64,000 nt of DNA from Chitinophagales bacterium (GCA_035515235.1 DATJBS010000011.1:5288-69287), one strand, 5' to 3'. Shown: positions 9,266 to 36,936, numbered from the stretch's first letter. Program-made: numbers and translations. The notes: generated by a model not told the origin, from the sequence alone.

Positions 9266-9298
9266 AGTATTCTATTTGAAATAATTTAAATGAAAGAA

Positions 9299-11689: not shown

Positions 11690-11760
11690 GGTGCTGTTAT
11701 ACTTTCGTGCTTTCTGTCATGAATATGATTTGGTAAATCTATGCAATCATATTGTTAATC
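11690..11760 (-). repeat. attC-family element, degenerate
   Basis: The ORF stop codon lies inside GATTAAC. This is followed by a 9-bp inverted repeat (AATATGATT...AATCATATT), the family core GAAAGCACGAAAG, and a second GTATAACAGCAC box. No clear GTT end was found. Confidence 0.35.
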
Positions 11761-12915: not shown

Positions 12916-12962
12916 ATTATTTTTTTTATCTTAAATCTTAATTTATATCGTTAAATATGTCT

Positions 12963-13106
12963 TAATAACTAGACTGTTATCGACTGAGGCTATGGGCTAC
13001 CTGCTATTTGCAGGAGTATTCAATATCTCACAGCGACGAAGTGAATGCGGGCGCAGAGCCTGCAAAAATACTTCAGCTAGCAGTTGGACATAGGCACGTG
13101 TTAAGG
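12963..13106 (-). repeat. attC-family element, degenerate, in a 416-bp ORF-free gap
   Basis: Minus-strand reading gives CCTTAAC-ACGTG..., then TATTTTTGCAGGC, which pairs with CCTGCAAATA, then ...GTTATTA. It is locally GC-richer than its surroundings. A separate TTTGTCAAC box lies at 13230..13238. Confidence 0.4.
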
Positions 13107-13331
13107 GTTGTGTATGCAATAGAACTACAGGAGGGCATGAACATTGGACTAGGTTTGATTTGAAAAGACCAATTACTATATTGATCCAATTCCTGAATTT
13201 ATCATTAAAAATGCTTTGACTAATTTAGGGTTGACAAAAAGGGATTTTATTGATTGGATATAATTCAACTGTAAAATTACTAGTTAATTTTATTAATGAA
13301 TTGTCTCTACCCGAATTGATTCATTAGTAGT

Positions 13332-14003
13332 TTAAATTATTGATTTTATATTGATCTCTATAATTGTCATACGACCATCATCGTAAGTATTAATAATATT
13401 CTTTGATTGTGCTAAGAGACTTCCATGAATTATATTCTTTGGGTCTAGGTAAATTACATAACCATTGTCTACTTTCTCCATATGTTCTCTTTTTGTAATT
13501 CCAGCAAGTAAATAATTGTTTAATAAAAGGTCTTTATTTTTATTATTAATATCTCTATTATATTGGGTTAATATATTATTTCCATTGCCGTCTTGAATAC
13601 CTTGTATAACTTTTGTTTCAATATAGTTTACTATGAAATCTAATTCTCCGATAAATTGATTTAAAAAGAACCCTATAGTAGTTGTCTCTTTTAATGTATC
13701 ATAATATCGGATTCTATAAGCATCACCAAGAATTTTCAGAAACCGTTCGTCTATTTTTTTTGTGATGTCAAAGTAGCAATCAGATAGTAATTCTTGTATT
13801 TTATCCAATTTATCTAAATGAACTCCCATTTCCTTTTTCTCTTTTCCATGAAATGCTAAGATTGCTTTTAAATATTTTTCTACAGCAGTACTTGCAAGAG
13901 TCACGCCTTGTATGATGTATCCACCATGAATCAAATATCTAGCAGAAATGTAATCATTATAACCTAATGAGATTAATGAAACAGCTTTAGAGTTATTATC
14001 CAT
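13332..14003 (-). CDS. HEPN domain protein with extra C-terminal domain
   Basis: 223 aa. YNDYISARYL...ASTAVEKYLKAIL...GVHLDKL...AYRIRYYD follows the classical HEPN helix pattern (QAxEKxLKA, HxL, RYP-like). No MNT partner is adjacent. Confidence 0.65.
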   Translation of the reverse strand: MDNNSKAVSLISLGYNDYISARYLIHGGYIIQGVTLASTAVEKYLKAILAFHGKEKKEMGVHLDKLDKIQELLSDCYFDITKKIDERFLKILGDAYRIRYYDTLKETTTIGFFLNQFIGELDFIVNYIETKVIQGIQDGNGNNILTQYNRDINNKNKDLLLNNYLLAGITKREHMEKVDNGYVIYLDPKNIIHGSLLAQSKNIINTYDDGRMTIIEINIKSII

Positions 14004-14032
14004 ATTGTGAAAATTATAGAAGCATAAAAAAA

Positions 14033-14165
14033 CTTGTCAACGTTTTGGCACTTGGCATGAAGCGGATTTGAAATCACAAAACTGTCTGCCTACACTAACT
14101 TGATACGAAGCACAAAGCTTCATTTGACCACAGAACCGCCAATTTCTTGTAGGAGCTGTTATAGC
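14033..14165 (-). repeat. attC-like imperfect palindrome
   Basis: Minus-strand reading gives GCTATAAC 6 nt after the stop, then ...AAATTGGCGGTT ... AATCCGC..GCCAAAAC-GTTGACAAG. The arms are cttgtcaacgttttggcac.. (14033-) and ..aaccgccaatttcttgtaggagctgttatagc (-14165). Confidence 0.7.
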
Positions 14166-14171
14166 TTGTGT

Positions 14172-14945
14172 TTATTCTAGTTCATGCATTAAAAGGTCGT
14201 CAGGATATACTGGTGTCAATTCATAATCGTCGGAATCTTTATTTATGTACATTGCTTTTTTAGTAGCCATGCCCCAGTCTCCGAGAAACTTCTTTCTATA
14301 TCTAGCAAGGGTAAAGAAAACTGTAACATTTTCAGACCAGTCTTTAATAAAAGAAGAGTCCTTATATGTATTAATTCTCAAAGCAATATTTGCATCAACA
14401 TCTAACTCGCTACCAGTTTGTAAGCCTTTTACATCTCCTTCAATTACCAATGAAGCAGACTGTGAGTTTGATTGCATTATTAATGCTCGTTTAGCAACTG
14501 TCACAGATGTTACTATAAAGCAGTTTTTCCAGTCTATTGAGTTTTTGTGTGGTTCCAATTGTTGTTCTAAATTGGATGTGTCAACAATAGAATTGACTTT
14601 ACAATCAACAGCAGCAAAATATGTTGCTCCTTCTTTATTAAAATTTATTTCGAGTTTTCCTTTTCCTACGGTTGCTGCATTAGCGTCCGCAGTAAAGCTG
14701 ACTCCAACAGATCCTTTACTTGCATATAAATACGGATCTGGATCTGAGTCATCTTGTTCTTGAAAGGTAACTCCCAAGCTTGAAAGTTTAGAAATAGGGT
14801 CAAATGATCCAATAGGTCTAGGCTTGACAAAACCTTTTCCAAAAGTAATGACGTCACCTACACTAACTGGTGTTCCTGGTAGAAATACTGGGATTTTATC
14901 AAGCTCCTTGATAATCTCTTTGCAATAGTCTTTAACTAAACTCAT
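14172..14945 (-). CDS. gasdermin-like (candidate pore-forming) protein
   Basis: 257 aa, no signal peptide, beta-rich. It has an N-terminal helix followed by PVFLPGTPVSVGDV. The segments CFIVTSVTVAKRALIMQSNSQSASLVIEGDV and NVTVFFTLARYRKKF resemble gasdermin N-domain strands as I recall them. The C-terminal tail of ~35 aa is acidic. This is pattern recognition only. Confidence 0.4.
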   Translation of the reverse strand: MSLVKDYCKEIIKELDKIPVFLPGTPVSVGDVITFGKGFVKPRPIGSFDPISKLSSLGVTFQEQDDSDPDPYLYASKGSVGVSFTADANAATVGKGKLEINFNKEGATYFAAVDCKVNSIVDTSNLEQQLEPHKNSIDWKNCFIVTSVTVAKRALIMQSNSQSASLVIEGDVKGLQTGSELDVDANIALRINTYKDSSFIKDWSENVTVFFTLARYRKKFLGDWGMATKKAMYINKDSDDYELTPVYPDDLLMHELE

Positions 14946-14956
14946 GATTTTAAATT

Positions 14957-15616
14957 TTAATTGTTATTAATTGATTGATTATTTTCTATTTGATTTTCTT
15001 TCGCAATTTCTTCAATAATGTCACCAATCACATACGGTGGTTCGCGATATGCTATTTTAAGATTTGAATCGCTGTGAGGATGGTTCAAACCAATTCTGTG
15101 AGATATTTCATGTGCTATTGTATTTGAAATACTGGGTGGATTTCTATTTTTTAATGGCACTCTATTGAACAATATAGGTCCATACTCGGTACCATCATAA
15201 GCTATATTACCATAAATTAAGTTAAGCCATAGCCCTTTTACTCCACCATAAGTATCAGCAGAAGTTCCATTAATATTTTCTCGCATTTTTTGAACAACAT
15301 CTTTCGCAACAACCCCTTCCCAAGCTTTAGTATGTTCACCCGTTCCTAAACTGTCCTTTATGTAATTCGTCAATAATGTCTCAAATTTTTCAGAATAAAC
15401 TGATTTTATTGTCAGATTTACTGCAAGTTTGAAATCATCAATCTTTTTACAAGGCATTTTTGACTCAGCGAAAGTAATTTCCTTGCCATCTAATTTATAG
15501 GTGATTTTTGGAACTTCACATAATGAAGTACATGATGAAATTGTTATCAGTACTCCTATACCTGCAATTATCGTAATTTTTTTTTCCTTCATTTTCATTG
15601 TTGTCTTTTTTAACAT
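14957..15616 (-). CDS. zinc metallopeptidase (metzincin-type HExxHxxGxxH), predicted lipoprotein
   Basis: 219 aa. HEISHRIGLNHPH motif. The N-terminus KKITIIAGIGVLITISSC looks like a lipoprotein signal. An 11-nt gap separates it from the downstream ORF. Confidence 0.6.
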   Translation of the reverse strand: MLKKTTMKMKEKKITIIAGIGVLITISSCTSLCEVPKITYKLDGKEITFAESKMPCKKIDDFKLAVNLTIKSVYSEKFETLLTNYIKDSLGTGEHTKAWEGVVAKDVVQKMRENINGTSADTYGGVKGLWLNLIYGNIAYDGTEYGPILFNRVPLKNRNPPSISNTIAHEISHRIGLNHPHSDSNLKIAYREPPYVIGDIIEEIAKENQIENNQSINNN

Positions 15617-15617
15617 A

Positions 15618-15754
15618 GGCTATAACGTTTTGCAGATTTGCGATGGGCGGGCTTTTTACCACAAATGTTGATGCGGAGCACAAAACTTTCGGCTACCACT
15701 ACACTGTCTGCGGAGAACGAAACCCCGCCTATTGCAAATGTGCTGTTAGCAGTA
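15618..15754 (-). repeat. attC-like imperfect palindrome
   Basis: Arms are ggctataacgttttgcagatttgcgatgggcggg (15618-) and ccccgcctattgcaaatgtgctgttagcag (-15752). The inner stems ATTTGCRATRGGCGGG pair 14/16 with a bulge next to the boxes. The AAC box lies 7 nt after the stop, and the GTT box lies 1 nt before the next ATG. Confidence 0.75.
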
Positions 15755-15760
15755 GGCATT

Positions 15761-16750
15761 CTATTTCTTGTCATCAAAGTAATTCTGTTTCCCAATCTTT
15801 CCTTTGACATAGTCGAGGTAGTTGTCGTCATTCTGTTTGTCGTTGTCAACTCTTGTCATTCCAACATTTAAATTTATTTGCTCACTTTCAAGGTCGTAAA
15901 TTACTTTGCTGATTGCTTGTTGTTTTAGATAGTACTTATATGAAATTTCTTCAACTTCTGCTAATGTAATCTCGGAAATAATAAATCTATGAATTACTCT
16001 ATTTCTTTCATCATAGAGAACATATAGTTCGTCAAATGTTGATTGGTCTATAATTCCTAAATCGAGTGCTTTTTTGTAAATATCTTTTTCTGATTTTTTC
16101 TTATCAGTTAGTCCTTGATAAATCCATTCGACTTCAATTTCACTATTGTTATTTGTTATTTGGTTTTTCAGAACGATACCAATTCTTAAAAGTGCATCAA
16201 TTTGACTTGCTAAAAGACAAGTAGCTTCAATGAAGGCTTTGTTTTCTATTGCTTTACTGAGAATTAAAGCAGTCGCACCAACTCCTTGCAAAAACATATC
16301 AAATCTATATGAGTTTATCACGTCAATACTTTTCCCATCTTCTATCGGTTTAAATTCTTTCAATATTGAATGAACGGTTTCCACTTTCTCGGATATTGTT
16401 CGACTGTCAAGGTCTTTGTCCGGATTGTTGGGATGTGTTAAAGTAAAAATCACTGATTTATCCCCTAATTGCTTTAACCAAGTTTTGGTCGTGAATTCCA
16501 TATCGCCACTATCAGGTAACTTATAAAAATCAAAGTCTCCAATTTTTTCAACTGTTAATGATTTGGTTAAGTTTTGAAAGTTCTTTTTCTTTTCTTCGGT
16601 GTCCAATGAATTTATTGATAGTTGGAATGCATCTGATTTCCAAATTTCATATTCCTGAAAAGTATGTACTTTTCCATTCTTAATTGAATGTTTCCAAGTC
16701 GTCGGAACTTTAATTTCGAAAGTTCCTTTTTCGTCTATAAATCGTTTCAT
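15761..16750 (-). CDS. two-domain protein with C-terminal HEPN-like RNxxxH motif
   Basis: 329 aa. The C-terminal helical region contains YDERNRVIHRFI (Rx4H). The N-terminal ~150 aa were not recognised. Confidence 0.45.
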   Translation of the reverse strand: MKRFIDEKGTFEIKVPTTWKHSIKNGKVHTFQEYEIWKSDAFQLSINSLDTEEKKKNFQNLTKSLTVEKIGDFDFYKLPDSGDMEFTTKTWLKQLGDKSVIFTLTHPNNPDKDLDSRTISEKVETVHSILKEFKPIEDGKSIDVINSYRFDMFLQGVGATALILSKAIENKAFIEATCLLASQIDALLRIGIVLKNQITNNNSEIEVEWIYQGLTDKKKSEKDIYKKALDLGIIDQSTFDELYVLYDERNRVIHRFIISEITLAEVEEISYKYYLKQQAISKVIYDLESEQINLNVGMTRVDNDKQNDDNYLDYVKGKIGKQNYFDDKK

Positions 16751-16775
16751 TGTCTTTTGTGTCGGTTATTATGCT

Positions 16776-16925
16776 TACTGCTAACTTGTCTATACACGCT
16801 ACATCGTTGTACATATACAACCCACGTCAAACGGATTTGAGATACTTCATCTCGTATTATCTTTTAAAAATAGCTAATTATTTATTCACAAATTAGTGAA
16901 AATTATATTCTGAATATAGTTTATT
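16776..16925 (-). repeat. attC-family element (GTT-box arm clear, AAC box uncertain)
   Basis: Minus-strand reading gives ...TCAAATCCG..GGGTTGTATATGTACAACGATGTAGCGTGTATAGACAAGTTAGCAGTA. This arm is homologous to the arm at 21710..21756. A possible AATAAAC box lies at 16919..16925. Confidence 0.5.
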
Positions 16926-16961
16926 GGTTATTATTTAAAATCAAGTTTTAAATCTAGATGC

Positions 16962-17627
16962 TCAATTATTCTCCTTCTCAAATTCTTCAATTTCTTTGTA
17001 AAATTGAATGGCTTTTTCTACAGATTTTCCGCCTGAACCTGCTATTAAATTTCTAAACCATTTTTTGTTTAAGTTTTCAGGAGTATGGTTTTTGTACAGC
17101 CAAAAAGAAAGATAAGTAAAACTGCCTGTCATCAGAATCTGAAAGATGATGTACGGCCATCCTACATCTTGCGGAAACCAATTTTTGCTCAAATAGAAGG
17201 TGGTAAAAAATGGAAATTGTAAACACATCCATTTGCCGTGGTCAATGATGGAAAGTTGAAGTCTTGATAATTGTTTCTGAATGTCCATTACACTGCCATC
17301 GTAATTTATATTTTTTGTCCAAACAAGATGTTTAATATAATCCGCAAACCCTTTTATATTGATGAATGCGATAGCAGAAACCGATACAATAAAATAATTG
17401 CTTGCCGAAGAGTAATTTGAAATAGCAAAAAATAAGGCATAGCCCAATAGGAGTAGGTAAAATACAAAAGCTATAATTCCTGCAGTTTTTAATTGAACCA
17501 AACCTTTTAAAGCAGATGCTGCCTTTCTGCCAATCGTCTCTTTTAAAAGCAATTGATTAATGGCCAATGTCTTTTCTATTTTGGCATTTTGCTCTTTCCA
17601 AATATTGATAAGTTCTAAATTTTCCAT
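16962..17627 (-). CDS. multi-pass membrane protein downstream of ECF sigma (anti-sigma-like by position)
   Basis: The start is set at the internal ATG at 17627 (MENLELINIWKEQ), which leaves one nucleotide (17628) between it and the sigma stop codon. About four hydrophobic segments. No recognised anti-sigma motif. Confidence 0.4.
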   Translation of the reverse strand: MENLELINIWKEQNAKIEKTLAINQLLLKETIGRKAASALKGLVQLKTAGIIAFVFYLLLLGYALFFAISNYSSASNYFIVSVSAIAFINIKGFADYIKHLVWTKNINYDGSVMDIQKQLSRLQLSIIDHGKWMCLQFPFFTTFYLSKNWFPQDVGWPYIIFQILMTGSFTYLSFWLYKNHTPENLNKKWFRNLIAGSGGKSVEKAIQFYKEIEEFEKENN

Positions 17628-17628
17628 T

Positions 17629-18141
17629 TTAGTGAGTTTTGACTTGATTGAATTCCTTGGTGATTTTGGTTTTAATTCTACTGATTTTTGTGGCCACATT
17701 GGTTTCGGTAATTCCGATGATTTCTGAAATTTCTTTATAACTTTTTTCTTCGAGGTATAGCAACATGAGCGCTTTATTCAAATCATTTAATTCTGAAATG
17801 ATATGATTCAATATTCCCAAATGAGTTTCTTTTTCATCTGATATTTCTGTGTCGGAAAAGTCAAAAATATCTGTTGTAATTGGGTTGGAGATTCTTTTTC
17901 TACTGTTTTCTTTCCTATAAAACGATATCGCTACATTAAGAGCAATTCGGTATATCCAAGTGGAATGTTTAAACTGTTCGTTGTAGTGATCAAATGATTT
18001 CCACAGCTGTAAAATAATTTCTTGAACGAGGTCTTTTCTATCTTCAAGATTCCGACAATAGGAGTTGGCGACTTTAAATAGAATGCCTTTGTGATGCTCC
18101 ATCACAACGAGAAAGTCGGCTGTCCTATCTTTGTCCATCAT
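17629..18141 (-). CDS. RNA polymerase ECF-type sigma-70 factor
   Basis: 170 aa. Region 2 is DLVQEIILQLWKSFDHYNEQFKHSTWIYRIALNVAISFYRK. Region 4 HTH is KSYKEISEIIGITETNVATKISRIK. Confidence 0.85.
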   Translation of the reverse strand: MMDKDRTADFLVVMEHHKGILFKVANSYCRNLEDRKDLVQEIILQLWKSFDHYNEQFKHSTWIYRIALNVAISFYRKENSRKRISNPITTDIFDFSDTEISDEKETHLGILNHIISELNDLNKALMLLYLEEKSYKEISEIIGITETNVATKISRIKTKITKEFNQVKTH

Positions 18142-18383
18142 CTTGTTGGTACGTTTGAAAACCTGTTTTAATTAAGCTAAACTGTTTGATATTATTGGTG
18201 TTTTTATTTTCCATTTTAGTTTGATTTTAAGATGAAGTATTGCTCTTTTCTTAATTATTCGCACAAGGACTATAAAAATCACACTTTTTTGAATAAAATT
18301 TTTCAGTGAAATAATAGGAATAAGTATTGATAAACTTTAGAGAAGATGTAAGAGGTGATTGATGTAGATAAAGAATGGTATTT

Positions 18384-18493
18384 GCTTTGTCGTGTTTCGC
18401 ATAAAATGTTGCGGACTTTCCAAGTTCAGTTTTAATTGGAGAGGTTTTTTCAGTAAAAACTGACTAAGCTATAGCTTATATACAGTGTTAGGC
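18384..18493 (-). repeat. attC-family element (canonical AAC box, distal end uncertain)
   Basis: GCCTAAC (a perfect RYYYAAC) lies 9 nt after the stop at 18487..18493 (plus strand gttaggc). Further along comes AAAGTCCGCAACATTTTATGCGAAAC, but no clear GTT box. Confidence 0.45.
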
Positions 18494-18502
18494 TACGTTA
18501 TT

Positions 18503-19183
18503 TTACATAACAAATTTATATATTTCTTTTACGTATTTTTCTCTTTGGTACCAATCGTTATAAACAAGCTCAAATTCATGTACTTTAAAAGTTCCAAAAT
18601 TGTATTTGATATTTTCATCTAAAAATTCTAATAATTTCTCTTTTTGACTTAATTCCGTTCTAAATCGAACAATAGTTGAGTGTGCTGTTTGTATTGAATA
18701 TCTTTTGTCTAAACTTTGTTCCAGATTAGAGCTTTTAAATTCTTTTCTCAGCCTGTCTCTTATATCATTTAGTTCATTATTATCCATAAACCCTTGAATC
18801 ATAATTCCAGAAGGTGAGGCAGTAATTCCTCTAAAAGAGATGTTTAGATCTTTCTTTTCTACAATGCATTTTTCAATTAATTCAATATACTTTGCTAAAT
18901 CAATCCTTTTAATGTCAAATCCATCATAACAAGAAATGATAGACATTACAGTAATATGAATGTCAGAGTTTGGATAATAATATTGATTCGGTTCAATTTT
19001 CTCAATTTCTTTGATAAATATTTGAATTTTTTCTTTTATCTCAATTGAAGGTCTTATCAAAAGCGTTATTCCAAACCTATTGTCTTTGTTAGAATCTATT
19101 AAATCGTCAATTTCGTAATTGTTGGAAGAGATTTTATCTATGGATTCATTATAGAGTTTTTTATAGTGGTTTTCTAAATTCAT
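18503..19183 (-). CDS. 2H phosphoesterase superfamily protein (LigT / cyclic phosphodiesterase-like)
   Basis: 226 aa with two HxT/S motifs, DIHITVMS and TAHSTIVRF. Confidence 0.7.
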   Translation of the reverse strand: MNLENHYKKLYNESIDKISSNNYEIDDLIDSNKDNRFGITLLIRPSIEIKEKIQIFIKEIEKIEPNQYYYPNSDIHITVMSIISCYDGFDIKRIDLAKYIELIEKCIVEKKDLNISFRGITASPSGIMIQGFMDNNELNDIRDRLRKEFKSSNLEQSLDKRYSIQTAHSTIVRFRTELSQKEKLLEFLDENIKYNFGTFKVHEFELVYNDWYQREKYVKEIYKFVM

Positions 19184-19186
19184 TCA

Positions 19187-19489
19187 TCACAAATTTTCAA
19201 TATTATTACGGATGTTCTTCTCAAACTCTTCAATTTCATTGTAACCAATGGCAAAAAGCAACAAAACCAAAGAAATTATGGCTGGTAAAAACATTTTCAA
19301 AATGCTATCCTTACCACTTGAATGGTCATGTCCGTCTTCATCAGAATGATTATCTGCCTTTTTTTCTTTAAAAACAGGTTCATCAGTTGCACAACAACCC
19401 ACTTCTTTCTGTTCTTTTTTTAATTGTTTGTCAGCCTCAAAATTTATCTTTTCTTCTTGTGTACAACAAAGTTGTTGACCGTTTTTGTC
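19187..19489 (-). pseudogene. fragment resembling the N-terminus of a heavy-metal P-type ATPase (CC / His-Asp-rich region plus first TM), no ATG at frame start
   Basis: The open frame runs from 19489 and reads ...QLCCTQEEK...VGCCATDEP...HSDEDGHDHSSGKDSILKMFLPAIISLVLLLFAIG. The track ORF begins at GTG 19402. The frame ends after an EIEEFEK tail shared with ORF 16962..17627. Confidence 0.4.
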
Positions 19490-19662
19490 TTATATATGTT
19501 TATGCTCCATTTATTGCAGGGTGTTCTAGATGTAAGCTATCATTTTGCAGATACTCGAAGAACGGAACTTTCCCTATAAAAGTTAATGCGAAAACCAATG
19601 TTTGATTAATCGCAAAATTGTTAATTTCATTGTTTGTGTGCTTATTGGGTGTGGTGAGGCAG

Positions 19663-19860
19663 AGTTAACGGGCCACGTATTGGCGATAGTGGCGGATTAG
19701 AAAGTTTAAACTCTCAATCTTGCACTAAGAAAAGCAATAGCCTTTTATTATTTTCTAAATTTATAAAAAAAGAAAATATAAAAGACTGTTGCGACTAAAA
19801 AAGGAGAAACTTTCAATTTCTCCCTTAAACCGCCATTTTGTCAACACGGTGTTATGTGTA
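19663..19860 (-). repeat. attC-like imperfect palindrome (long central loop)
   Basis: Minus-strand reading gives TACACATAAC-ACCGTG..AAAATGGCGGTTT, a centre of ~120 nt, then CTAATCCGCCACTATCGCC..GGCCC-GTTAACT. TGGCGG pairs with CCGCCA. Confidence 0.65.
19796..19824 (-). terminator. Rho-independent terminator-like hairpin inside the loop of element 19663..19860
   Basis: Minus-strand reading gives GGAGAAA-TTGAAAG-TTTCTCC followed by TTTTTT. Confidence 0.45.
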
Positions 19861-19911
19861 GTTTTTTTGAGGGTATTTTCCTTTGTTTTCTTTTTATTTG
19901 AATATTATTTG

Positions 19912-19936
19912 TATATTTGCAAGGGAAATTTCCCTT
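19912..19936 (+). promoter_or_regulatory. Bacteroidota-type -7 box plus perfect 16-bp palindromic operator upstream of the HTH-ImmA gene
   Basis: TATATTTG (TAnnTTTG) lies at 19912..19919. It is directly followed by AAGGGAAATTTCCCTT at 19921..19936, 12 nt before the ATG at 19949. Confidence 0.55.
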
Positions 19937-19948
19937 AATTTTGATTAT

Positions 19949-21130
19949 ATGAATATTGAGAGTTTATTAAATTCCATATTTTCAGATACAAATTATAATA
20001 TTAAAAATGTTTTTGAACAGAAGCTTAACGAATACAATCTAAGTAGAACTAAGGCTTTAAAACTATTGAATATTGATAAAGATGTATTTGATGAAATTTT
20101 AAATGGAACAGCAAAACAACCAAATTTAATACATATTGTAAAGATTGCAGAGTTTTTAGGAATAGAAGTCAATAGCTTTATAAATATTGTATTAAAAAAT
20201 CAAAGTGCTGAGAATATTTCAGCAATTGATAGTGCTAGAAAAGCTACGTTTCTTGTTAAAAACTTTGATGTAAAAGCGCTTACAAAACTTGGCTTTTTTG
20301 ACGCAGATTATACGACTGAAGAACTTGTAAATAAGGTTTTAGATTATTTTGGTTATACTTCAATTAATGATTTTGAAGAACAATTAGAAGAACCTTTGTA
20401 TAGTAGGGTTAAAAAGAATCATTCAGATAAAATGAAAGATTTTTGGATAAAATCCGCTTATCAAACTTTTAAGGTTATTAATAATCCGAATGATTATAAT
20501 CGAGAAAGATTAAAAGACTTAATTGTGAAAATTAAGCCTTATAGTCAAGATGTCGGTAATGGTTTGTTGACTGTCTGTAGAGCATTATATAATATTGGAG
20601 TTACTGTAATCTTTCAAAATTATTTGACAACTACTCAAGTTCGAGGTGCGACCTTTATAATAAACGACAAACCATGTATTGTAATTACTGATTTCAATAA
20701 AGTTTATCCAACACTTTGGTTTACATTATTGCATGAACTTAATCACGTTTTGTTTGATTATGATACAATTGAAAAAAGTAGTTACCACTTGTCAGATGAT
20801 AATGACTTATTCTTGATTGAAGATCAAGCAAATTCATTTGCTAGAAATTTCTTTCTATCTGAAGAAAAGTTCAAGTACATTAAGAAATACATTAATAATC
20901 CCTATTTAGTGTCAAAGTTTGCAAATGAGATTGAAGTTCATCCTTCAATTGTTTATTCTTTTTTTACATGGTATCAGAAAGAATTATACAATAAGAATTA
21001 TCATGCTGCTTTCAGAGAATATTATCCGGATTACAGTAATGCAATTTCCAAATTAAATCCAATAACTTGGAATGAAGCAAGCATTAAGGAAGCAAGTGAA
21101 AAAATTAAATCAGTTTTAGAATTAAATTAA
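19949..21130 (+). CDS. HTH (XRE-type) + ImmA/IrrE-family metallopeptidase fusion
   Basis: N-terminal HTH (LSRTKALKLLNIDKDVFDEILNG...IVKIAEFLGIEVNSFI) and the HExxH motif LLHELNHVLFD. The start is set at the internal ATG at 19949 (MNIESLL). Confidence 0.75.
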   Translation: MNIESLLNSIFSDTNYNIKNVFEQKLNEYNLSRTKALKLLNIDKDVFDEILNGTAKQPNLIHIVKIAEFLGIEVNSFINIVLKNQSAENISAIDSARKATFLVKNFDVKALTKLGFFDADYTTEELVNKVLDYFGYTSINDFEEQLEEPLYSRVKKNHSDKMKDFWIKSAYQTFKVINNPNDYNRERLKDLIVKIKPYSQDVGNGLLTVCRALYNIGVTVIFQNYLTTTQVRGATFIINDKPCIVITDFNKVYPTLWFTLLHELNHVLFDYDTIEKSSYHLSDDNDLFLIEDQANSFARNFFLSEEKFKYIKKYINNPYLVSKFANEIEVHPSIVYSFFTWYQKELYNKNYHAAFREYYPDYSNAISKLNPITWNEASIKEASEKIKSVLELN

Positions 21131-21136
21131 GATATT

Positions 21137-21673
21137 ATGTCAAATAAAGAAATAAAAAAACAAGAAGGGCTTTCTCAAGCCGATATAGAAAGATTAGAAC
21201 TTTTACAAAAAGCTAATGAAAAAATAGGAAAGCAATTGACTATAAATTCTGAATCTGGAAATCTTGAAGAATTTGATGAATTAAGACAATTAGTTGGGAA
21301 AGAATTTGAAAATCCTGAAGAAAAATACAACTTGTATTATGTGGGAATAAGAAGATTACTAATGGGTTATTTACCAAAAGGCAAGGATAATAAGCAATTA
21401 AGAGAAATTATTTATGATGAAAAAAATGTTTTTTTGAATTTAGGTAAGAAGAAATCGGATAATAACGGGATACGTAAATCTGATGGAAGAATGACTTATC
21501 AACCAGTAATGAATGAAATATTAGATATAATCATCAAGTGGGTAGGAGAGTCTCAAAATCCTTTCGATTTATATAGAGATTTCTATGAGTTGAATGAAAA
21601 ACATGGATACGGTCATGAGGTTTATGATGATAGTACACAAAGTGTAGCGAAAGCAATGTTAGCTTTAAGCTGA
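21137..21673 (+). CDS. hypothetical protein, co-oriented partner of the HTH-ImmA gene
   Basis: 178-aa ORF 6 nt downstream of the preceding stop. No motif recognised. Confidence 0.5.
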   Translation: MSNKEIKKQEGLSQADIERLELLQKANEKIGKQLTINSESGNLEEFDELRQLVGKEFENPEEKYNLYYVGIRRLLMGYLPKGKDNKQLREIIYDEKNVFLNLGKKKSDNNGIRKSDGRMTYQPVMNEILDIIIKWVGESQNPFDLYRDFYELNEKHGYGHEVYDDSTQSVAKAMLALS

Positions 21674-21707
21674 AGCTAGAATTTTACTACGATGCTTTTA
21701 GAAAAAT

Positions 21708-21756
21708 TACACATAACTTGTTTATATGCGCTACAAATTAGCGCAAATACAACCAT
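21708..21756 (-). repeat. GTT-box arm of an attC-family element (upper boundary of array 1)
   Basis: Minus-strand reading gives GGTTGTATTTGCGCTAATTTGTAGCGCATATAAACAAGTTATGTGTA. It is homologous to the arm of 16776..16925 and contains the GCGCTA/TAGCGC hairpin. Confidence 0.55.
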
Positions 21757-21928
21757 AGATAGATGGATATGTGATATTTTATAGCTTAATATATTTTAAA
21801 AATAAACAATATATCTTATTAATCTTAGAGGGAGATTTTATAATTCTGAATCTAATCTCTTCATTCAATTCTATGATGGATATTTAAAAAGTTTTGATAT
21901 GAGATAAATTCATTATTTTTAGAATACC

Positions 21929-24729: not shown

Positions 24730-25233
24730 TTATTCGAATAATGTTTTTATAGTATTCATTGGTAGAAACATTTTTCCGCTATCTGGTAATTTAATAAAAC
24801 CATATTTATGATAAAATCTTTCTGCAAGTTCATCAATAGGGTCAACTACAACTGCAAACGAACCTATACTTTTTGAAATCTCATAGCTTCTCCTTAAAGC
24901 ATCAATCAATAATAGTTTTCCTACTCCTTGTTTTTGAAATCGATTATCTATTGCCAAACGTCCGAGTAGAGTAGAAGGTATAGATTTATAAGAATTAGGT
25001 AGTTTTTTTTGAAATTCTTCTGGGATTAATTCTTGTGCTAAACTGTTATTCGCTAAAGTATAATAGCCTTTTAGTAAATCTGTTTCTTTGTCAATTAGCA
25101 CAAAGCAGGCAGATAGTTTTCTTTTGATGTCTTGATTGGCTTGTTTGTGCAAATAATCATCCAACATTTCATTCCCACACGAAAATTCTTTTTTTCTATG
25201 ATTAGAATTTAAGATTTCTGTCAGTTCGTTCAT
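24730..25233 (-). CDS. GNAT-family acetyltransferase toxin (TacT/KacT-like)
   Basis: 167 aa. RLAIDNRFQKQGVGKLLL acetyl-CoA motif. A 4-nt overlap links it to the upstream DUF1778 gene. Confidence 0.8.
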   Translation of the reverse strand: MNELTEILNSNHRKKEFSCGNEMLDDYLHKQANQDIKRKLSACFVLIDKETDLLKGYYTLANNSLAQELIPEEFQKKLPNSYKSIPSTLLGRLAIDNRFQKQGVGKLLLIDALRRSYEISKSIGSFAVVVDPIDELAERFYHKYGFIKLPDSGKMFLPMNTIKTLFE

Positions 25234-25595: not shown

Positions 25596-25652
25596 TATAA
25601 TGTTTTTTATGTATTGTGGCTCACATTTTATAGCTACAATAAGAGCGAAATT

Positions 25653-25763
25653 TTATAACAAAACTGGACTTGAATAACCAATGTTTGATTAATCAAAAAG
25701 CTGACTCTGGAACACGAAACCACAACTATTACCCATATAATATTAGTAGTACTGTTTTAATAC
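25653..25763 (-). repeat. attC-family element
   Basis: Minus-strand reading gives GTATTAAAAC-AGTAC (the ORF stop codon TAA lies inside the box), then GGTTTCGTGTTCC (family core), GATTAATCAAACATTGGTT and GTTTTGTTATAA. Its start resembles that of element 10816..10904. Confidence 0.5.
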
Positions 25764-26224
25764 AACGAATTAAGTTTTGCAATAATTTTTACAATTTTTT
25801 CTACTTTCTGATTTTCAGTAGCGGATGAATTTATGCTTTGAATTATTTCATTCTGCTCTTCAATTTTGAGTTTCTTGAATATATTTAATACTTCAGCATC
25901 TTTGAAGCATTCAATAATTATTTCATTCTCATTCTTTTTTGTATTTCTATTTTCAAGATAGAGTGTAACTGTAACGATGTCGCCACCTTTTTTATTGATT
26001 GCTTTTCGAATCTCACTATTTACCGAAAGCATTTTATCTTCGCCTTTTATAGGAGCAAGGTTTCTTGCTTTAATTTTAAAATCATCAATGGAACCTGAAA
26101 CTTTAATATCACCCCATTTCCCTTCAATATCTTTTGAATTTGGAATACGTAAATGGTATGTCCAAGCTCCTTTTCCTGGTTGGTGCTTTAATTCAAGCTT
26201 TTCGTCTTTTATAATATATTCCAT
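25757..26224 (-). CDS. YdeI/OmpD-associated family protein (DUF1905-containing)
   Basis: 155 aa. GKGAWTYHLRIP...IKVSGSIDDF...SVNSEIRKAINKKGGDIVTVTL. Confidence 0.6.
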   Translation of the reverse strand: MEYIIKDEKLELKHQPGKGAWTYHLRIPNSKDIEGKWGDIKVSGSIDDFKIKARNLAPIKGEDKMLSVNSEIRKAINKKGGDIVTVTLYLENRNTKKNENEIIIECFKDAEVLNIFKKLKIEEQNEIIQSINSSATENQKVEKIVKIIAKLNSLY

Positions 26225-26558
26225 TTTTTATAAGATAGTCTTTTAGCCTTGCCGCTAGATCTTTTAAACCCACTACAAATTATTTCATATTCAACCATAA
26301 AAGGATGTATATAAGATATTTCTTAGAGCGAAATCTTTTAAATGTACTTATTAAATTTCAATCTATTATTTCAAAAAAATCATGCTGTTTTGAAGAAGTT
26401 AATCATGAGTTCTAATAGATGTTTTTGTTCCATTCGAAATTTCATTTTCTACATTTTATTCCTATTTAAACCTGTAGTTTGAATTGGTTTATTTCAAGGC
26501 TCAATGAAACTTGATTGTACATTGTTCGTATATTTTAATACACTAAAGACTAAACGAG

Positions 26559-33096: not shown

Positions 33097-33282
33097 GATT
33101 TCCTTCTTTCAATTGTGATTATTTTTTTAGTAAAAGATTAGAACCACAATCGCTCGTGCTCTTATGATTTGAAGTATTAATTGTTGATTTGAAAAACAAG
33201 CTTGAGCTTTTCAAAAACTGTCAGAGAAGATTTAGCCCTCCATTTTGCAAAACTCGTATTATGGGTTGGTTTTGATGGATGG

Positions 33283-33693
33283 TTAATTAAATCTGAAAAA
33301 GAAAAATGCAACTGCTGCCCATTCTTTCCTTACACCTCTTGCATACCCAATTGTTGAATAACTGCTATTTTGCACTGTGCCATCATTCTTAATATACCCA
33401 ATTGTTGAATAACTGCTATTTTGAACAGTTCCATCATTTTTAATATAACCAACGGTTGAATAACTACTGTTCTGAATAGTTCCGTCAGATTTTATGTAAC
33501 CAATCGTTGAATAACTGCTATTCTGAATAGTTCCGTCAGACTTTATATATCCAACGGTCGAATAACTGCTATTTTGAATAGTGCCGTCAGACTTTATATA
33601 TCCAGTGGTCCCGTAATTACTAGATTGTATAGTTTGTGCCTTAGCAAAACCAACTGTGAGCAACATAGTTGCTAAAAGGAATAAATTTTTCAT
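33283..33693 (-). CDS. secreted tandem-repeat protein
   Basis: 136 aa. Signal peptide MKNLFLLATMLLTVGFAKAQ. Five full copies plus a partial copy of the 17-aa unit GTIQNSSYSTVGYIKSD. Confidence 0.6.
   Translation of the reverse strand: MKNLFLLATMLLTVGFAKAQTIQSSNYGTTGYIKSDGTIQNSSYSTVGYIKSDGTIQNSSYSTIGYIKSDGTIQNSSYSTVGYIKNDGTVQNSSYSTIGYIKNDGTVQNSSYSTIGYARGVRKEWAAVAFFFFRFN
33330..33624 (-). repeat. 51-bp in-frame tandem repeat (about 5.5 copies) inside CDS 33283..33693
   Basis: The nucleotide units ccaa[tc][tc]gttgaataactgctatt[tc]tgaa... recur with a 51-nt period. Confidence 0.85.
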
Positions 33694-33837
33694 TTTCTTA
33701 TTTTTTAAATGTAGTTCCTACTCTTATGAATTTTCAGAATACTCTCTGTTTTTAAAGTTGTTTTCTTGTCTCAACTTTTTGTCTGTCACTTAAAAAGAGG
33801 CAGCCTGCTTTGAATCGCTATGTAATTCTAATTTGAA

Positions 33838-33971
33838 CATCAACGGTTACGTATATGAAACGTTTGGCATTTCGAAGCCCCAAACTTTCGGTTAATCACA
33901 AAGTCTAATACGAGCCAAAAGCCATGATATTACTACTGTTTCGTCTATTTTTTATATACATTGTTACTATA
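33838..33971 (-). repeat. attC-like imperfect palindrome
   Basis: Minus-strand reading gives TATAGTAAC 6 nt after the stop, then ..GTATATAAAA.. ..CCGAAAGTTTGGGGCTTCGAAATGCCAAACGTTTCATATACGTAACC-GTTGATG. Confidence 0.65.
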
Positions 33972-33977
33972 CGTTTT

Positions 33978-34469
33978 TTATTCTGTTTTATTTAATTCTG
34001 ATGTTTTTACAACAATTGTATTTCCCCAAATGTCTCCCAATCTTTGATTTTTATCTGTGTTTTTTATTGTTATGATTCCGATTAGTCCAAAAAAGAATAT
34101 ATCGATTGGGTCAAGTAAATGTCTTTTTAAAGATTGTCCAAAAGTCAGTTTTTCAACCGTTCCGCTAAAATTTGATTTGTCAGTTGATTTTCGGATTGAC
34201 ACAGGTTTTAGTCCGACTAAAGTATTTCCGAGTGTTGCTCCGAACCATTGCTCAATTCCAACTGTTATTAATGCCCAAAATAGAATTGGCACAATTGCAG
34301 GAAGTCCGTTAACACTATATTCTTCTTCGGGATTAGGTTCTCCAAAAGTGTAAACATAAATAAAGAAAAAAATACCAATAATTAAATAGTCAATAATTCC
34401 TGCTAAAATTCGGTTTCCAATGTTTGGTTCTGTCTTAAATTCAGTAGTTAAGTTTGTTTCGGTCATCAT
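33978..34469 (-). CDS. RDD-family membrane protein
   Basis: 163 aa. NRILAGIIDYLIIGIFFF followed by TM segments and a C-terminal GDIWGNTIVV. Confidence 0.6.
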   Translation of the reverse strand: MMTETNLTTEFKTEPNIGNRILAGIIDYLIIGIFFFIYVYTFGEPNPEEEYSVNGLPAIVPILFWALITVGIEQWFGATLGNTLVGLKPVSIRKSTDKSNFSGTVEKLTFGQSLKRHLLDPIDIFFFGLIGIITIKNTDKNQRLGDIWGNTIVVKTSELNKTE

Positions 34470-34479
34470 TTTTTAAATT

Positions 34480-34617
34480 CATGGTAACGGTTCTCAGCTA
34501 CACGCAGGCAGGGATTTTTAGCACTGAACTTCCTACGAAGAACTGAACTTTAAATTTACCACTTTCCTTTTCTACGAAGCACGAAACCCCTGCTTGCGTA
34601 TAGGTGATGTTACCGGC
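34480..34617 (-). repeat. attC-like imperfect palindrome
   Basis: Arms are ggtaac-ggttctcagc-tacacgcaggcaggg (34483-) and cccctgcttgcgtata-ggtgat-gttacc (-34614). The inner stem pairs 13/15 with an asymmetric bulge beside the boxes. The core gaagcacgaaac is present. Confidence 0.75.
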
Positions 34618-34627
34618 TGGCGTTCTA

Positions 34628-35335
34628 TCATTCCACATATTTCAAAAGTTCTCTTACTAGTCGAAACACAGTTGTTGATGATTCTTCTCTAGCTGGATTT
34701 GTATGGTCAAAATGATTGTAATTTCTCTCTGCTCTATCTATTGCAAGTTCAGCTCTTTTTCTGCTCGTTTTGTCATCTATTCCGTCAAGTAATTCAAAAA
34801 AATCTTCTTCTATTAATTTTGTCCCATTGCCGTCATAGGTTACTTTGAATGGTTTAAGGTGTTCATTGATTTTATCATTGTAATTATCTCTATGCATTCC
34901 ACCGCCTTGATGGTCATTAAAGTGTAGTATTAGCCAATATTCAAACGATTGATTTGAATAAGCTACTCCAAAGTTGTTGGCTAAGGCTATTTGAATTGCA
35001 GAGTTGAAATCATTGTCGTTAAAATCGTCTTTGTCAAACACACACCAAACTTGGTCGTAGTTCCCTTGTTGGGCTAACACGAGGGCTCTATTTACTAACG
35101 AAACTGTATTATATCCTTCACCAACTGATTTGACTTTTGCGGAAGTAATTCTGAATTGATTAAAATAAGAGGGTTCGGTATTTTCTCCTTCACAAACAAT
35201 AAGAATAGAGGGTTTTTCTGTTAACTCTGCAACAGGTCTTTCTAGGCTCGGTTCTTTTCTTCGTTGAGCCCTTAACTGTTCAAGGTGCTTTTGCTTAGCT
35301 GCTTTTTGTTCAGCTTTTTTGTCCTTCATTTTCAT
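34628..35335 (-). CDS. RloB-like (TOPRIM-type) protein
   Basis: 235 aa. SILIVCEGENTEPSYFNQF is the RloB hallmark. It overlaps the upstream ATPase gene. Confidence 0.75.
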   Translation of the reverse strand: MKMKDKKAEQKAAKQKHLEQLRAQRRKEPSLERPVAELTEKPSILIVCEGENTEPSYFNQFRITSAKVKSVGEGYNTVSLVNRALVLAQQGNYDQVWCVFDKDDFNDNDFNSAIQIALANNFGVAYSNQSFEYWLILHFNDHQGGGMHRDNYNDKINEHLKPFKVTYDGNGTKLIEEDFFELLDGIDDKTSRKRAELAIDRAERNYNHFDHTNPAREESSTTVFRLVRELLKYVE

Positions 35336-36644
35336 TTTCTGTCAATAAAAATTGTAGGTTATCAAAAAAGCCAAGAAATGGAACTGCACCATATTTTCCT
35401 CTGATATAGTTTTCTTCAAAAGGCTCTGTTTTTCTTACTTCATCTGATTTAAAGTCAGCTAAGGAATAAAGTTTCGCTTCTCCATATTTATTTTTGTTTG
35501 TGAACCAAATTTGATCTCTTCTGAAAAGTCCTGAACTTAATAAGTTTGTGTCGTGAGTATTGAAAATCAACTGTGCATTCTTCTTATTAAACTCTTTAGA
35601 GTTAAAAAGCGAAACGATTTTACAAACCAAATTTGGATGAATTTTAGAGTCTAACTCATCTACAACTAATGTATATCCATTTTCAATCACATCAAGAATA
35701 GGCCCCGTTAAAGCAAAGAATTTTCTTGTTCCTGATGATTCATCTTCGTCCAAAGAAAAACTAATGTTTCCTACCGCTTTTAAGTCTTCATTATATTTTT
35801 TATGCTTGGTCAATACATCAGAAACATACTCTTGCTTTTCTTCACGAACTTCTTTAATAATTTTATCTTTAAGTTCTTTGGGCATCCCTTTTGGAAGACT
35901 ATTGATGTCAAGTTTTTGTAATTCGATATCTTGAATTCCTAAATCAGCAGCTTTCAATAAAGCTAGAATTTTGATTTTGTGTTCAGGGTCTTCTGTTCTA
36001 CTCATAGTAAAGCCTTGGTAACCTGATTCGTTTAACCCTGATAAAGTTTTTAGTCTTTTAAACCAATCTAAAACAATGATTGCCGTCTTTTCATTGAATT
36101 GAGCGGCTACAGAAATTAATAACGCATTATCTCGAACAAGTCCTTCCTTAACAACCATATTGCCTTTGGTGAAACTTCGTTCGTGAGTATTGAAGGTGCT
36201 ACCTTCTCTGTAAAAGAGTTCAACTTCTTTTGTTTTTGGTTTGTGATAAAGCCACTCAGACACAATTCTCTCAGTTGTTGCTTCAAAGCCATAACGATAA
36301 AGCACATTTTTGTAAATGAAAATGATTTCAAATTCAGATGGTTCGTTTTCTGTCTGTGTGCTTAGTTTAAATGGCTCAACCTCAATAGTCTCACCTTTTT
36401 GGCTTTCCTTAGAACTATTGATTACGAAATATCGCATAAATGCAAATGCATCAAGCAACTTGCTTTTGCCACTCGCATTTGCACCATAGATAACTGCACT
36501 TTTGAGAAGTCTCAGTCCAAAGTTTTCATTGATTACGATATTTTCGTGCTCTCTGGTGTCTTTATCATAGTTAGAAGCAATAAGGCTCAAAGTCGCTTTG
36601 TCCTTAAATGTCCTAAAGTTTTTAATTGAAAATTGCAGAAGCAT
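35310..36644 (-). CDS. AAA/ABC-type ATPase (AAA_21-like; RloA/AbiLi-like)
   Basis: 444 aa. Walker A is IYGANASGKSKLLDAF and Walker B is LVVDELDSKIHP. Confidence 0.75.
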   Translation of the reverse strand: MLLQFSIKNFRTFKDKATLSLIASNYDKDTREHENIVINENFGLRLLKSAVIYGANASGKSKLLDAFAFMRYFVINSSKESQKGETIEVEPFKLSTQTENEPSEFEIIFIYKNVLYRYGFEATTERIVSEWLYHKPKTKEVELFYREGSTFNTHERSFTKGNMVVKEGLVRDNALLISVAAQFNEKTAIIVLDWFKRLKTLSGLNESGYQGFTMSRTEDPEHKIKILALLKAADLGIQDIELQKLDINSLPKGMPKELKDKIIKEVREEKQEYVSDVLTKHKKYNEDLKAVGNISFSLDEDESSGTRKFFALTGPILDVIENGYTLVVDELDSKIHPNLVCKIVSLFNSKEFNKKNAQLIFNTHDTNLLSSGLFRRDQIWFTNKNKYGEAKLYSLADFKSDEVRKTEPFEENYIRGKYGAVPFLGFFDNLQFLLTENENEGQKS

Positions 36645-36767
36645 CTTTCTGTTCGTTTTTGATTAATTCCCTGCAAAGGTAGTCTTTATTTTGCAATTGC
36701 AAGCAAAATAAAAGTTGTTTTTGATTGTTTTCGTTTGAAAATCTTGTTTATACCGCTTTTTTACGTT

Positions 36768-36776
36768 TGCCGGTAA
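36768..36776 (-). repeat. GTT-box junction opening array 2
   Basis: Plus-strand GCCGGTAAC is the exact reverse complement of GTTACCGGC at 34609..34617. A possible ATTCAAC box lies at 36910..36916, but no convincing arms were seen. Confidence 0.5.
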
Positions 36777-36936
36777 CTTATTTATATGTATAATAAAAGT
36801 GTATCAATTCATCCCAAATTAGTTGAATAGGTAAACCTTTTGATTTACTTTATATGTATTTCAAATATAGAATATAATTTTTATAAATCATCGAAGAGAC
36901 TTCTTATTTGTTGAATACTTTTAGTATAGCTTTTGC

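Follow-up and report, generated by a model that had tools for sequence, protein, structure and literature searches.

A probable, partly decayed cassette array with attC-like hairpin sites in a Chitinophagales genome, and its likeness to integrons

Integrons are the textbook gene-capture system, and Boucher et al. 2007 are said to have described integrons of Treponema and of the Chlorobium group whose integrase is co-oriented with the cassettes. The stretch of DNA considered here, called the window, comprises 64,000 nucleotides (nt) from a Chitinophagales bacterium (GCA_035515235.1 DATJBS010000011.1:5288-69287), with all positions counted from its first letter. It holds a minus-strand run of genes and hairpin elements, array 2, that extends from 36776 down to ~33183 and resembles the cassettes of an integron. 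In Bacteroidetes, IntegronFinder 2.0 reported lone integrases only, plus one complete integron in Salinibacter ruber (PMC9024848), and a 2024 preprint names Bacteroidota as an example of the clades earlier found without any integrons. That surveys report almost no integrons in Bacteroidetes suggests that the attC model of IntegronFinder misses sites of the kind described below (PMC9024848). A survey of tyrosine recombinases calls the IntI insertion "not fully conserved" in an integron-like subgroup, yet essential for integron function (PMC8138268). Finally, Weinberg et al. 2017 (PMC5737381) describe the DUF1874 motif, a structured motif in consecutive intergenic regions, proposed as an unusual attC-like single-stranded DNA site and with no integrase seen nearby.

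Array 2 consists of three gene units in succession, separated by an intact hairpin element (element A) and by a second, apparently degenerate one (element B). It is read here as a short, partly decayed cassette array of an integron-like site-specific recombination system widespread in Bacteroidota, with a probability of about 0.78. An earlier note, made from the sequence of the window, had proposed a second cassette array with attC-like sites; the cassettes find support, and the sites prove not to be components of the canonical attC/IntI system.

Element family, hairpin and shifted register

A 20-mer that occurs in the loops of element A and of a related element at 15.7 kb in the window served to search for the family, one genome being scanned for each species. 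This 20-mer matches more than 120 genome loci, against an estimated chance expectation of about 9. Among the matches listed, the titles are nearly all Bacteroidota, including Pedobacter, Riemerella, Hymenobacter, Chitinophaga, Algoriphagus, Chryseobacterium, Flavobacterium, Saprospiraceae and Cytophagales, the exceptions being three metagenome bins with another or no phylum label. Cultured carriers include Chryseobacterium balustinum DSM 16775, Daejeonella rubra DSM 24536, Algoriphagus aquimarinus DSM 23399, Hymenobacter koreensis JCM 17924 and Pedobacter psychrophilus CCM 8644. Around the 20-mer a span of ~125 nt is conserved, from TAAC to CGTTA, with variable flanks beyond, and ascertainment by an exact 20-mer inflates the apparent conservation of this family alignment. 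As judged from these sequences, the element family is phylum-wide in Bacteroidota rather than species-specific.

A hidden Markov model (HMM) of 114 copies found 223 copies in 121 loci plus the window. In 52 of these 122 sequences there are 2-7 copies, 0.5-3 kb apart and co-oriented with a single exception, and a covariance model detects denser arrays than the HMM, such as eight copies within the 8 kb of locus L100. Directly 5' of 112 of the 122 elements lying away from locus ends (92%) stands a co-oriented open reading frame (ORF), and in these 112 stop codon and AAC are a median 19.5 nt apart. In 89 of the 122, the ORF that follows is likewise co-oriented and starts ~50 nt past the GTT. The cargo is very diverse, as the biggest protein cluster among 801 ORFs near elements has 12 members. 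Where different genomes have a cassette in common (80-96% nucleotide identity), the homology ends 2-6 nt past the G of GTT, or begins at TAAC.

One such cassette, a cation-efflux/HMA unit, occurs at 90-96% nucleotide identity in five loci of different genomes, L096 (4300-5678), L114 (2239-3653), L009, L041 and L107, and its two segments stand in reversed order in L096 relative to L114. In L059 one cassette start, GTTACCACCAATTGTAAAGAGA, occurs twice, at an attI-like site (4363) and after the first element (5322), and both elements have identical 5' boxes, a tandem duplication of one cassette. Short-read assemblies break inside elements: the contig of L127 ends inside one, and that of L001 (Logan SRR8931197) ends just past RloB, at element A. 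Arrays are thus likely to be under-assembled in metagenomes.

In the conserved span the outer AAC and GTT are near-invariant (158-159 of 165 elements), and the other four box positions depart from the purine/pyrimidine (R/Y) rule of RYYYAAC/GTTRRRY, with CGGTAAC/GTTACCA in element A and GTTAGCG in the consensus. Between the boxes lies a long stem, whose structure was written by hand and then tested. In 150 model-aligned copies, 84.2% of cells pair compared with 63.6% in shuffles, double-change cells number 659 against 197, and the covariation score is 0.477 against 0.130 in shuffles and at most 0.075 with the partners slid; this covariance-model alignment was fitted to the structure, and is thus biased in its favour. 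Counts on the HMM alignment agree with the covariation result. Across the family, compensatory changes occur in 22 of the 24 stem pairs, and the stem exists in complementary variants, ATTTGCAAT/ATCGCAAAT, CTACCCAAA/TTCGGGTAG and TTTGGCAAA/TTCGCCAAG, with a fourth variant common to element A and L116.

The stem is not symmetric between strands. On the coding strand, A x C is kept at three stem positions, in 145, 134 and 122 of 165 copies, and these mismatches become G.T wobbles on the bottom strand. A conserved C x C mismatch and an internal loop of 1 vs 5 nt adjoin the outer boxes. The conserved A x C mismatches, together with the better folding energies of the bottom strand, point to the latter as the structured strand. 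In element A, the plus (bottom) strand folds as one long hairpin of -21.6 kcal/mol (z -3.1), compared with -17.7 kcal/mol for the top (coding) strand; set against the positions of the family alignment, its stem differs from the consensus, yet keeps the C x C and one of the three conserved A x C positions. RNAalifold on the coding strand recovers only a 6-bp loop hairpin, missing the long stem because of the A x C mismatches. As to extrahelical features, the bottom-strand bias and the asymmetric 1 vs 5 nt internal loop were seen, and the canonical extrahelical T and G were not identified.

Lying ~20 nt past stop codons and possessing a covarying stem, the elements might also be taken for structured RNAs or terminators at gene 3' ends, with the box matches a by-product. 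This explanation is barely credible, as there is no terminator-like site at element A or B, Rfam, DUF1874 included, yields no match to the element either at gathering score or with E allowed up to 1-5, and the conserved mismatches make the transcribed strand the poorer folder. It would also leave the shifted register, the turnover of cassettes at one locus and the link to a recombinase, all described below, unexplained. An RNA role alongside recombination could exist, and an antisense RNA may arise from the structured bottom strand. An intrinsic terminator and a ~35-nt palindrome of the repetitive extragenic (REP) type were considered separately and rejected, the hairpin being ~125 nt long and element A being followed by GTTACCATGAATTTAAAAA, with no T run.

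The boxes of neighbouring elements match in a shifted register. For each junction, the 15 nt that begin with the GTT of one element were compared with the next element's 15 nt up to and including AAC, read as their reverse complement. A contiguous match of at least 8 nt was found in 45 of 78 neighbour junctions (58%), whereas it occurs in 10% when elements are read in their own register and in 4% of random pairs from different loci. The shifted register, which the earlier note had proposed for this window, is hence a strong property of the family as a whole. The run is exactly 10 nt long in 24 and exactly 9 nt in 19 of the 78 pairs, and runs end in three stereotyped classes: 10 nt then A/G, 9 nt then CA/TCG, and 9 nt then AA/TG. 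Past the stereotyped mismatch the match often resumes. This register implies that the unit with a common history begins at a GTT, takes in the gene and ends with the next hairpin, as excision of a circle and re-insertion by crossover at GTT would yield.

It is this register that bears most directly on a different explanation, in which the elements are non-autonomous transposable repeats, either miniature inverted-repeat transposable elements (MITE-like) or of the IS200/IS605 type, that insert downstream of genes and leave the genes outside the mobile unit. The elements are indeed dispersed, highly conserved and equipped with a hairpin, and IS91-type transposase/recombinase pairs and other insertion sequence (IS) ends abut the 5' box in some loci. 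However, the 5' box pairs with the start of the preceding unit, 0.5-3 kb upstream, and not with its own 3' box, so that the mobile unit includes the gene. Identical gene-plus-element units with boundaries at GTT recur in different genomes, and copies are strictly co-oriented with genes, which together make a transposable repeat very improbable. The IS ends themselves adjoin or replace the element 5' box in L068, L069, L039 and L079; in L068 and L069 the flank at this box reads ...TAGTTC|AAC, and in L069 (4340-6228) a Y2 transposase of the IS91 type stands beside it, forming a pair with a tyrosine recombinase of a second kind. The 5' box may be a hot spot for insertion.

Layout of array 2

The features of array 2 are as follows, in the order in which they would be read on the minus strand.

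36778-36840, minus: attI-like region 5' of cassette 1, reading CAACTAATTTGGGATGAATTGATACACTTTTATTATACATATAAATAA, then G at 36777
36769-36777, minus: junction 1, the start of cassette 1, reading GTTACCGGC, 9/9 complement of the element A 5' box
34628-36644, minus: cargo of cassette 1, an AbiL-type phage-defence pair
35310-36644, minus: AbiLi/AAA_21 ATPase (Pfam AAA_21 1e-37; PADLOC AbiLi 8e-103)
34628-35335, minus: AbiLii/RloB (Pfam RloB 3e-45; PADLOC AbiLii 6e-32)
34480-34617, minus: element A, intact attC-like hairpin site (HMM 97 bits, covariance model 130 bits)
33978-34469, minus: cargo of cassette 2, an RDD-family membrane protein (Pfam RDD 9e-21)
33838-33971, minus: element B, apparently degenerate attC-like site (covariance model 18.0 bits, E ~0.01)
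33711-33780, minus: DUF805 RNA motif (Rfam RF03081) in the 5' leader of cassette 3 (cmscan 55.5 bits, gathering score 51.1)
33283-33693, minus: cargo of cassette 3, a 5-fold beta-flower protein (Pfam Bflower_2 5e-43)
33183-33197, minus: possible and weak 5' box remnant of a lost third element, ...TTTTTCAAATCAAC, with a 6-nt run to the element B 3' box (p = 0.15)

Gene calls and Pfam agree with the earlier description of three successive minus-strand units, namely an ATPase with RloB, an RDD protein and a tandem-repeat protein. The RDD gene begins 19 nt past the G of R' in element A (34488), and 9 nt separate its end from the R'' box of element B. The beta-flower gene is built of 51-nt tandem repeats, with five copies at 51-nt spacing in 33293-33634. 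The DUF805 RNA is the sole Rfam match in the array 2 region and lies outside the elements; the gene 3' of it here, encoding the beta-flower protein, is not a DUF805 gene. The window as a whole has a G+C content of 33% and encodes a type IX secretion sorting domain, a sign of Bacteroidota. The product of a flanking gene is 100% identical to a protein from a Chitinophagales metagenome-assembled genome at NCBI.

Element A is the better preserved of the two sites. Its boxes are GCCGGTAAC at 34609-34617 (R'') and GTTACCA at 34482-34488 (R'), the inner stem pairs in 13 of 15 positions (L'' 34588-34602 with L' 34499-34513), and the spacers beside the boxes are unequal, 6 vs 10 nt. Coordinates, boxes, stem and spacers are all as the earlier note had given them. 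The 97 bits were obtained with the phylum-wide HMM, and the 130 bits with a covariance model whose seed included element A. The same note had assigned array 2 to the element family of array 1, a second array at 10800-21800; for element A this is borne out, as it joins the 15.7-kb and 14.1-kb elements by alignment, HMM and covariance model, and element B is a degenerate case.

Element B has the boxes TAGTAAC (R'', 33963-33969) and GTTGATG (R', 33838-33844). The covariance model, from whose seed it was absent, finds it at full length (33826-33980), and by eye its centre is about two thirds identical to the family consensus, with the upper stem broken by indels. The phylum HMM gives a partial match of E = 0.13; the match to an HMM built from the window alone was discounted, since element B was in that HMM. 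Hence the proposal that element B is an array element holds as far as the covariance model goes and falters on structure, as the stretch 33838-33971 does not fold as a single hairpin (z +0.6).

At junction 1, the first box had been placed at 36768-36776; GCCGGTAAC is in fact at 36769-36777, one base to the right. Read from 36777, the minus strand is GTTACCGGC|AA|ACG and the reverse complement of the element A 5' box is GTTACCGGC|TG|GCG, a 9-nt run of the AA/TG class, as in 9 other junctions. The three window junctions were compared with 34,915 random pairs of family boxes. For junction 1 (36769-36777 vs 34609-34617, 9/9) this gives p = 0.025 by run and p = 0.014 by identity (12/15), so that the first of the three box matches claimed earlier stands out from chance. 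The other two, a 6/7 match at junction 2 and a 6/6 match at junction 3, do not, and their figures are given with the points weighed below. From this layout, cassette 1 (the AbiL pair with element A) looks mobilisable by its sequence, while cassettes 2 and 3 are probably fixed, because they are bounded by the degenerate element B and by no recognisable third element.

Recombinase, attI-like sites and a proposed mechanism

The biggest protein cluster near elements is a tyrosine recombinase of ~350-385 amino acids (aa) with Phage_int_SAM_4 and Phage_integrase domains. It scores 185-220 bits against TIGR02249 (integron integrase), under the cut-off of 265, and 190-230 bits against the archaeal XerA model of NCBIfam ("site-specific tyrosine recombinase/integron integrase"), whose cut-off is 220. 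In every array-linked recombinase examined, TIGR02249 is matched in two stretches (profile ~3-180 and ~255-315), with ~55 residues absent at the IntI-specific insertion. The nearest solved structures are XerA (5HXY, 4e-38) and IntI4 (2A3V, 7e-34, in two pieces), and the N-terminus carries ~90 extra residues absent from Xer proteins. Homologues number more than 7,000 and are named XerD, site-specific integrase or integron integrase by their sources.

The recombinase gene lies upstream of an array and co-oriented with it in L020, L027, L050, L059, L085 and L114, and likewise in L122, L123, L134, L139 and L142, whereas L132 shows the divergent, classical integron arrangement. In L139, elements in the same orientation lie on both sides of the recombinase gene (8058-9379 and 12538-19961), which may place it inside one array or between two. 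Four recombinase look-ups had co-oriented genes downstream, in a long run in L122 and L126, and core genes of mixed orientation upstream. L123 carries the same site family as element A, and the sites of L122 and L126 belong to two further hairpin families, which likewise have TAAC ... AACGTT ends and match in the shifted register. A site of the L126 type is also present in the window at ~12960-13110 (minus), TAACACGTGCCTATG ... CCCATAGCCTCAGTCGATAAC, with its 3' GTT mutated to GAT; its counterparts in L126 lie at 19358-19504 and 20267-20400 of that locus.

In the metagenome sample plus the looked-up loci, with arrays scored by covariance model R1 or by eye, arrays were found in 8 of 10 loci where the recombinase has the N-terminal domain and the flank measures 2.5 kb or more, compared with 1 of 12 loci whose match is without that domain. 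This specificity bears on the possibility that the cassettes are real and are moved by the chromosome-dimer Xer or another enzyme, in the manner of pdif modules or of elements that exploit Xer, with the nearby recombinase a coincidence. For such a view speak the scores of the array-linked enzyme on XerC, XerD and XerA profiles, nearly as good as on IntI, and the fact that no recombinase lies within reach of most sampled arrays, the two of the window among them. Yet the association is confined to the subfamily with the N-terminal domain, the attI-like GTT has a stereotyped position 71-531 nt past the recombinase gene, and the sites are hairpins in one orientation rather than dif-like duplexes of 28 bp. 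A host Xer with a chance neighbour is accordingly considered improbable.

The features of the enzyme and its sites also bear on the view that array 2 is the remnant of a canonical integron, with ordinary attC sites and a bona fide IntI encoded elsewhere, that is, a standard CALIN (clustered attC sites with no integron integrase). AAC/GTT boxes, an imperfect hairpin, the shifted register, co-oriented ORFs and bottom-strand bias are all as in integron arrays, and the linked recombinase is related to IntI by both its TIGR02249 score and its match to 2A3V. However, all array-linked recombinases examined skip the IntI-specific insertion and stay below 265 bits, a loop sequence of ~70 nt is conserved across the phylum, unlike in attC, and the 1 vs 5 nt internal loop with its conserved mismatches takes the place of the canonical extrahelical bases. 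The surveys cited at the outset likewise offer Bacteroidetes only lone integrases and the Salinibacter ruber integron (PMC9024848). An ordinary integron remnant is therefore judged unlikely as well, and an integron-like system with an enzyme of its own is the preferred reading.

Sites resembling attI support this reading. An AT-rich motif resembling GCGTATAnAnAnnn|GTTA lies 71-531 nt past the integrase stop in L020, L027, L050 and L059, and these four loci show the first cassette's box, exact over 9-10 nt, at the attI-like GTT, whose upstream side is AT-rich and has no hairpin. A similar motif stands just past the integrase gene in L123 and L125. The AT-rich motif at 36778-36840, next to cassette 1, resembles GCGTATAnAnAnnn|GTTA too.

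The site at 36777 can be compared with L127, a sequencing-run assembly and the closest available relative, in which the product of a flanking gene is 82% identical. L127 shows synteny over the PD40/OmpA and NAD-binding genes, with a nucleotide identity of 79-84%; past the NAD-binding gene it has an extra ORF of ~200 codons and then the same left half, CAACTAATTT ... ACATATAAATAA|GTTA. There the cassette differs from that of the window, beginning GTTATTTGCAAGC... and encoding an unrelated 160-aa membrane protein followed by its own element, the 5' box of which follows the rule of 9 nt plus AA/TG (GTTATTTGC|TG|GCTT vs GTTATTTGC|AA|GCTT). The same left half with a different cassette indicates a conserved attI-like hot spot at 36777 with variable cargo. 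L128 (Gaetbulibacter) and L129 have neither gene order nor element in common with the window.

Further attI-like sequences occur in the window as a repeat family of 80-98 nt (16775-16872, 21707-21804 and 26263-26342) that ends on the minus strand in ...TAGCG(T/C)(G/A)TATA(G/A)ACAA|GTTA, the last ~15 nt resembling the integrase-side attI-like sites; in the 26.3-kb copy the GTT is mutated to TCT. It thus seems that the window has several attI-like sites, with a small array beginning at each, and several small arrays lie within ~26 kb. Multiple hot spots or a CALIN-type cluster had been suggested for the two arrays, and the hot spot at 36777, the further attI-like copies and a window free of integrase genes fit that suggestion.

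In array 1 (minus), box matches are 10/10 between 16785 and the 15.7-kb element, 8/8 from the 15.7-kb to the 14.1-kb element, and 8/8 from the latter to TTGTCAAC at ~13231. Among its cargo are HEPN, an ECF sigma factor pair, a nuclease of the PLD type and a protein resembling 2'-5' RNA ligase, along with an M78 peptidase (PD-Lambda-2_B-like) unit in reverse orientation at 19883-21673. The ORF 19883-21130 of this unit had been a candidate integrase and was rejected, being an M78 peptidase by Pfam. The region 25606-26342 (minus) resembles a single-cassette locus, with an attI-like repeat, a DUF1905 gene (25757-26224) and a degenerate element (25606-25759, 44 bits); adjoining it are a GNAT acetyltransferase ORF (24730-25233) and, before that, a small ORF, in a layout resembling a toxin-antitoxin pair.

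A mechanism can be proposed on these grounds. A cassette would consist of GTT, a leader of ~50 nt, one or two co-oriented ORFs, ~20 nt and an imperfect hairpin of ~125 nt, the hairpin site being made up of R'' (...TAAC), the covarying stem, the conserved loop and R' (GTT). Excised as a circle, the cassette would bring the variable 9-10 nt after its starting GTT to pair with the variable 9-10 nt before its final TAAC, with the bottom strand as the putative folded substrate. Re-insertion would follow by a crossover at or beside GTT, into the AT-rich attI-like site or another hairpin site. The likely recombinase is the Xer/IntI-related enzyme with its extra N-terminal domain of ~90 aa, usually encoded just upstream of arrays and co-oriented with them. 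The arrays of the window would then depend on a recombinase acting in trans, or be fossil.

Besides the ascertainment and alignment biases noted above, several points weigh against this interpretation of array 2. Excision, circular intermediates and a single-stranded DNA substrate would be required by it and are put forward by analogy, and the exact crossover base and the identity of the acting enzyme are likewise putative; the GTT being invariant, the crossover base within it cannot be fixed from sequence. Tblastn with the array-associated integrases found no integrase homologue in the 64-kb window. The array-linked recombinase is without the IntI-specific insertion by which canonical integrases read extrahelical bases, so that its recognition of the hairpin is putative. 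Junction 2 is a 5-nt run (p = 0.28; 10/15 identity, p = 0.13) and junction 3 has p = 0.15, both common among random box pairs. Membership of element B in the family, as a degenerate copy, is weakly suggested by its sequence, and 3' of the third gene (33179-33275) the covariance model finds no significant element (9.7 bits, E = 2). Part of array 2 may therefore be inert.

A broader proposal, favoured with noticeably less confidence than the reading of array 2 itself, is that Bacteroidota own a phylum-wide and unrecognised analogue of the integron, composed of a dedicated recombinase, an attI-like site, several families of bottom-strand hairpins and the shuttling of cargo between genomes. The recombinase would be Xer/IntI-related, with the N-terminal extension and without the IntI insertion, and the commonest hairpin family would be the one with the near-invariant loop. 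Such a system would shuttle AbiL, restriction-modification and metal-efflux genes and hundreds of unknown genes between orders, and array 2 would be one of its integrase-less outposts.

Comparison with known systems

No description of the element or the system was found in the literature searched, the element sequence included; most subscription journals lay outside that search, and an earlier description is possible. If true, the proposal would overturn the view of Bacteroidota as essentially integron-free and a working analogue would account for the movement of defence and accessory genes within a phylum dominant in soils, waters and guts. Cassette recombination at hairpin sites would then not need the IntI-specific domain that has been called essential (PMC8138268). 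In practice, the near-invariant loop and the AACGTT ends could be used as anchors for polymerase chain reaction (PCR) or sequence searches in the metagenomics of Bacteroidota cassettes, as attC primers are in Proteobacteria.

Modules bounded by pdif sites, and mobile elements that exploit Xer, resemble the present cassettes in that genes are enclosed by sites of an Xer-type recombinase and the enzyme here is Xer-like. Their sites, however, are 28-bp duplexes typically in alternating orientation, whereas here 125-nt hairpins in one orientation go with a dedicated recombinase. The DUF1874 motif is a different motif that does not match the element, and the passage that describes it gives no evidence of a shifted register or a recombinase (PMC5737381).

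Integrons of the Treponema and Chlorobium type share with the arrays described here an integrase upstream of the array and co-oriented with it, and differ in that their enzymes are described as true IntI with the additional domain.

The closest likeness is to sedentary chromosomal integrons and CALINs, such as the Vibrio cholerae superintegron with its V. cholerae repeats (VCR). There too, co-oriented cassettes of one or two genes end in an imperfect AAC ... GTT hairpin; with the boundary at GTT, the beginning of each cassette is complementary to the 5' box of its own site; the bottom strand is the preferred one; a tyrosine recombinase has an AT-rich attI-like site beside it; and the cargo is rich in defence- or toxin-like genes, as is AbiL here. 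In contrast, the recombinase in Bacteroidota is without the IntI insertion, carries an additional domain at its N-terminus and mostly shares the orientation of the array; the loop is conserved across a phylum and not a species; box complementarity extends over 9-10 nt plus a stereotyped mismatch and not over 7 nt; and the 1 vs 5 nt internal loop, the A x C and the C x C replace extrahelical bases. By the usual definition of a CALIN, at least two co-oriented sites with no integrase nearby, elements A and B stand ~640 nt apart with no integrase in 64 kb, a correspondence by analogy only and with element B weak. Array 2 is thus comparable in function to an integron cassette array without an integrase, but it is not a canonical integron, because an IntI with the additional domain is a defining feature of the latter and is absent here.

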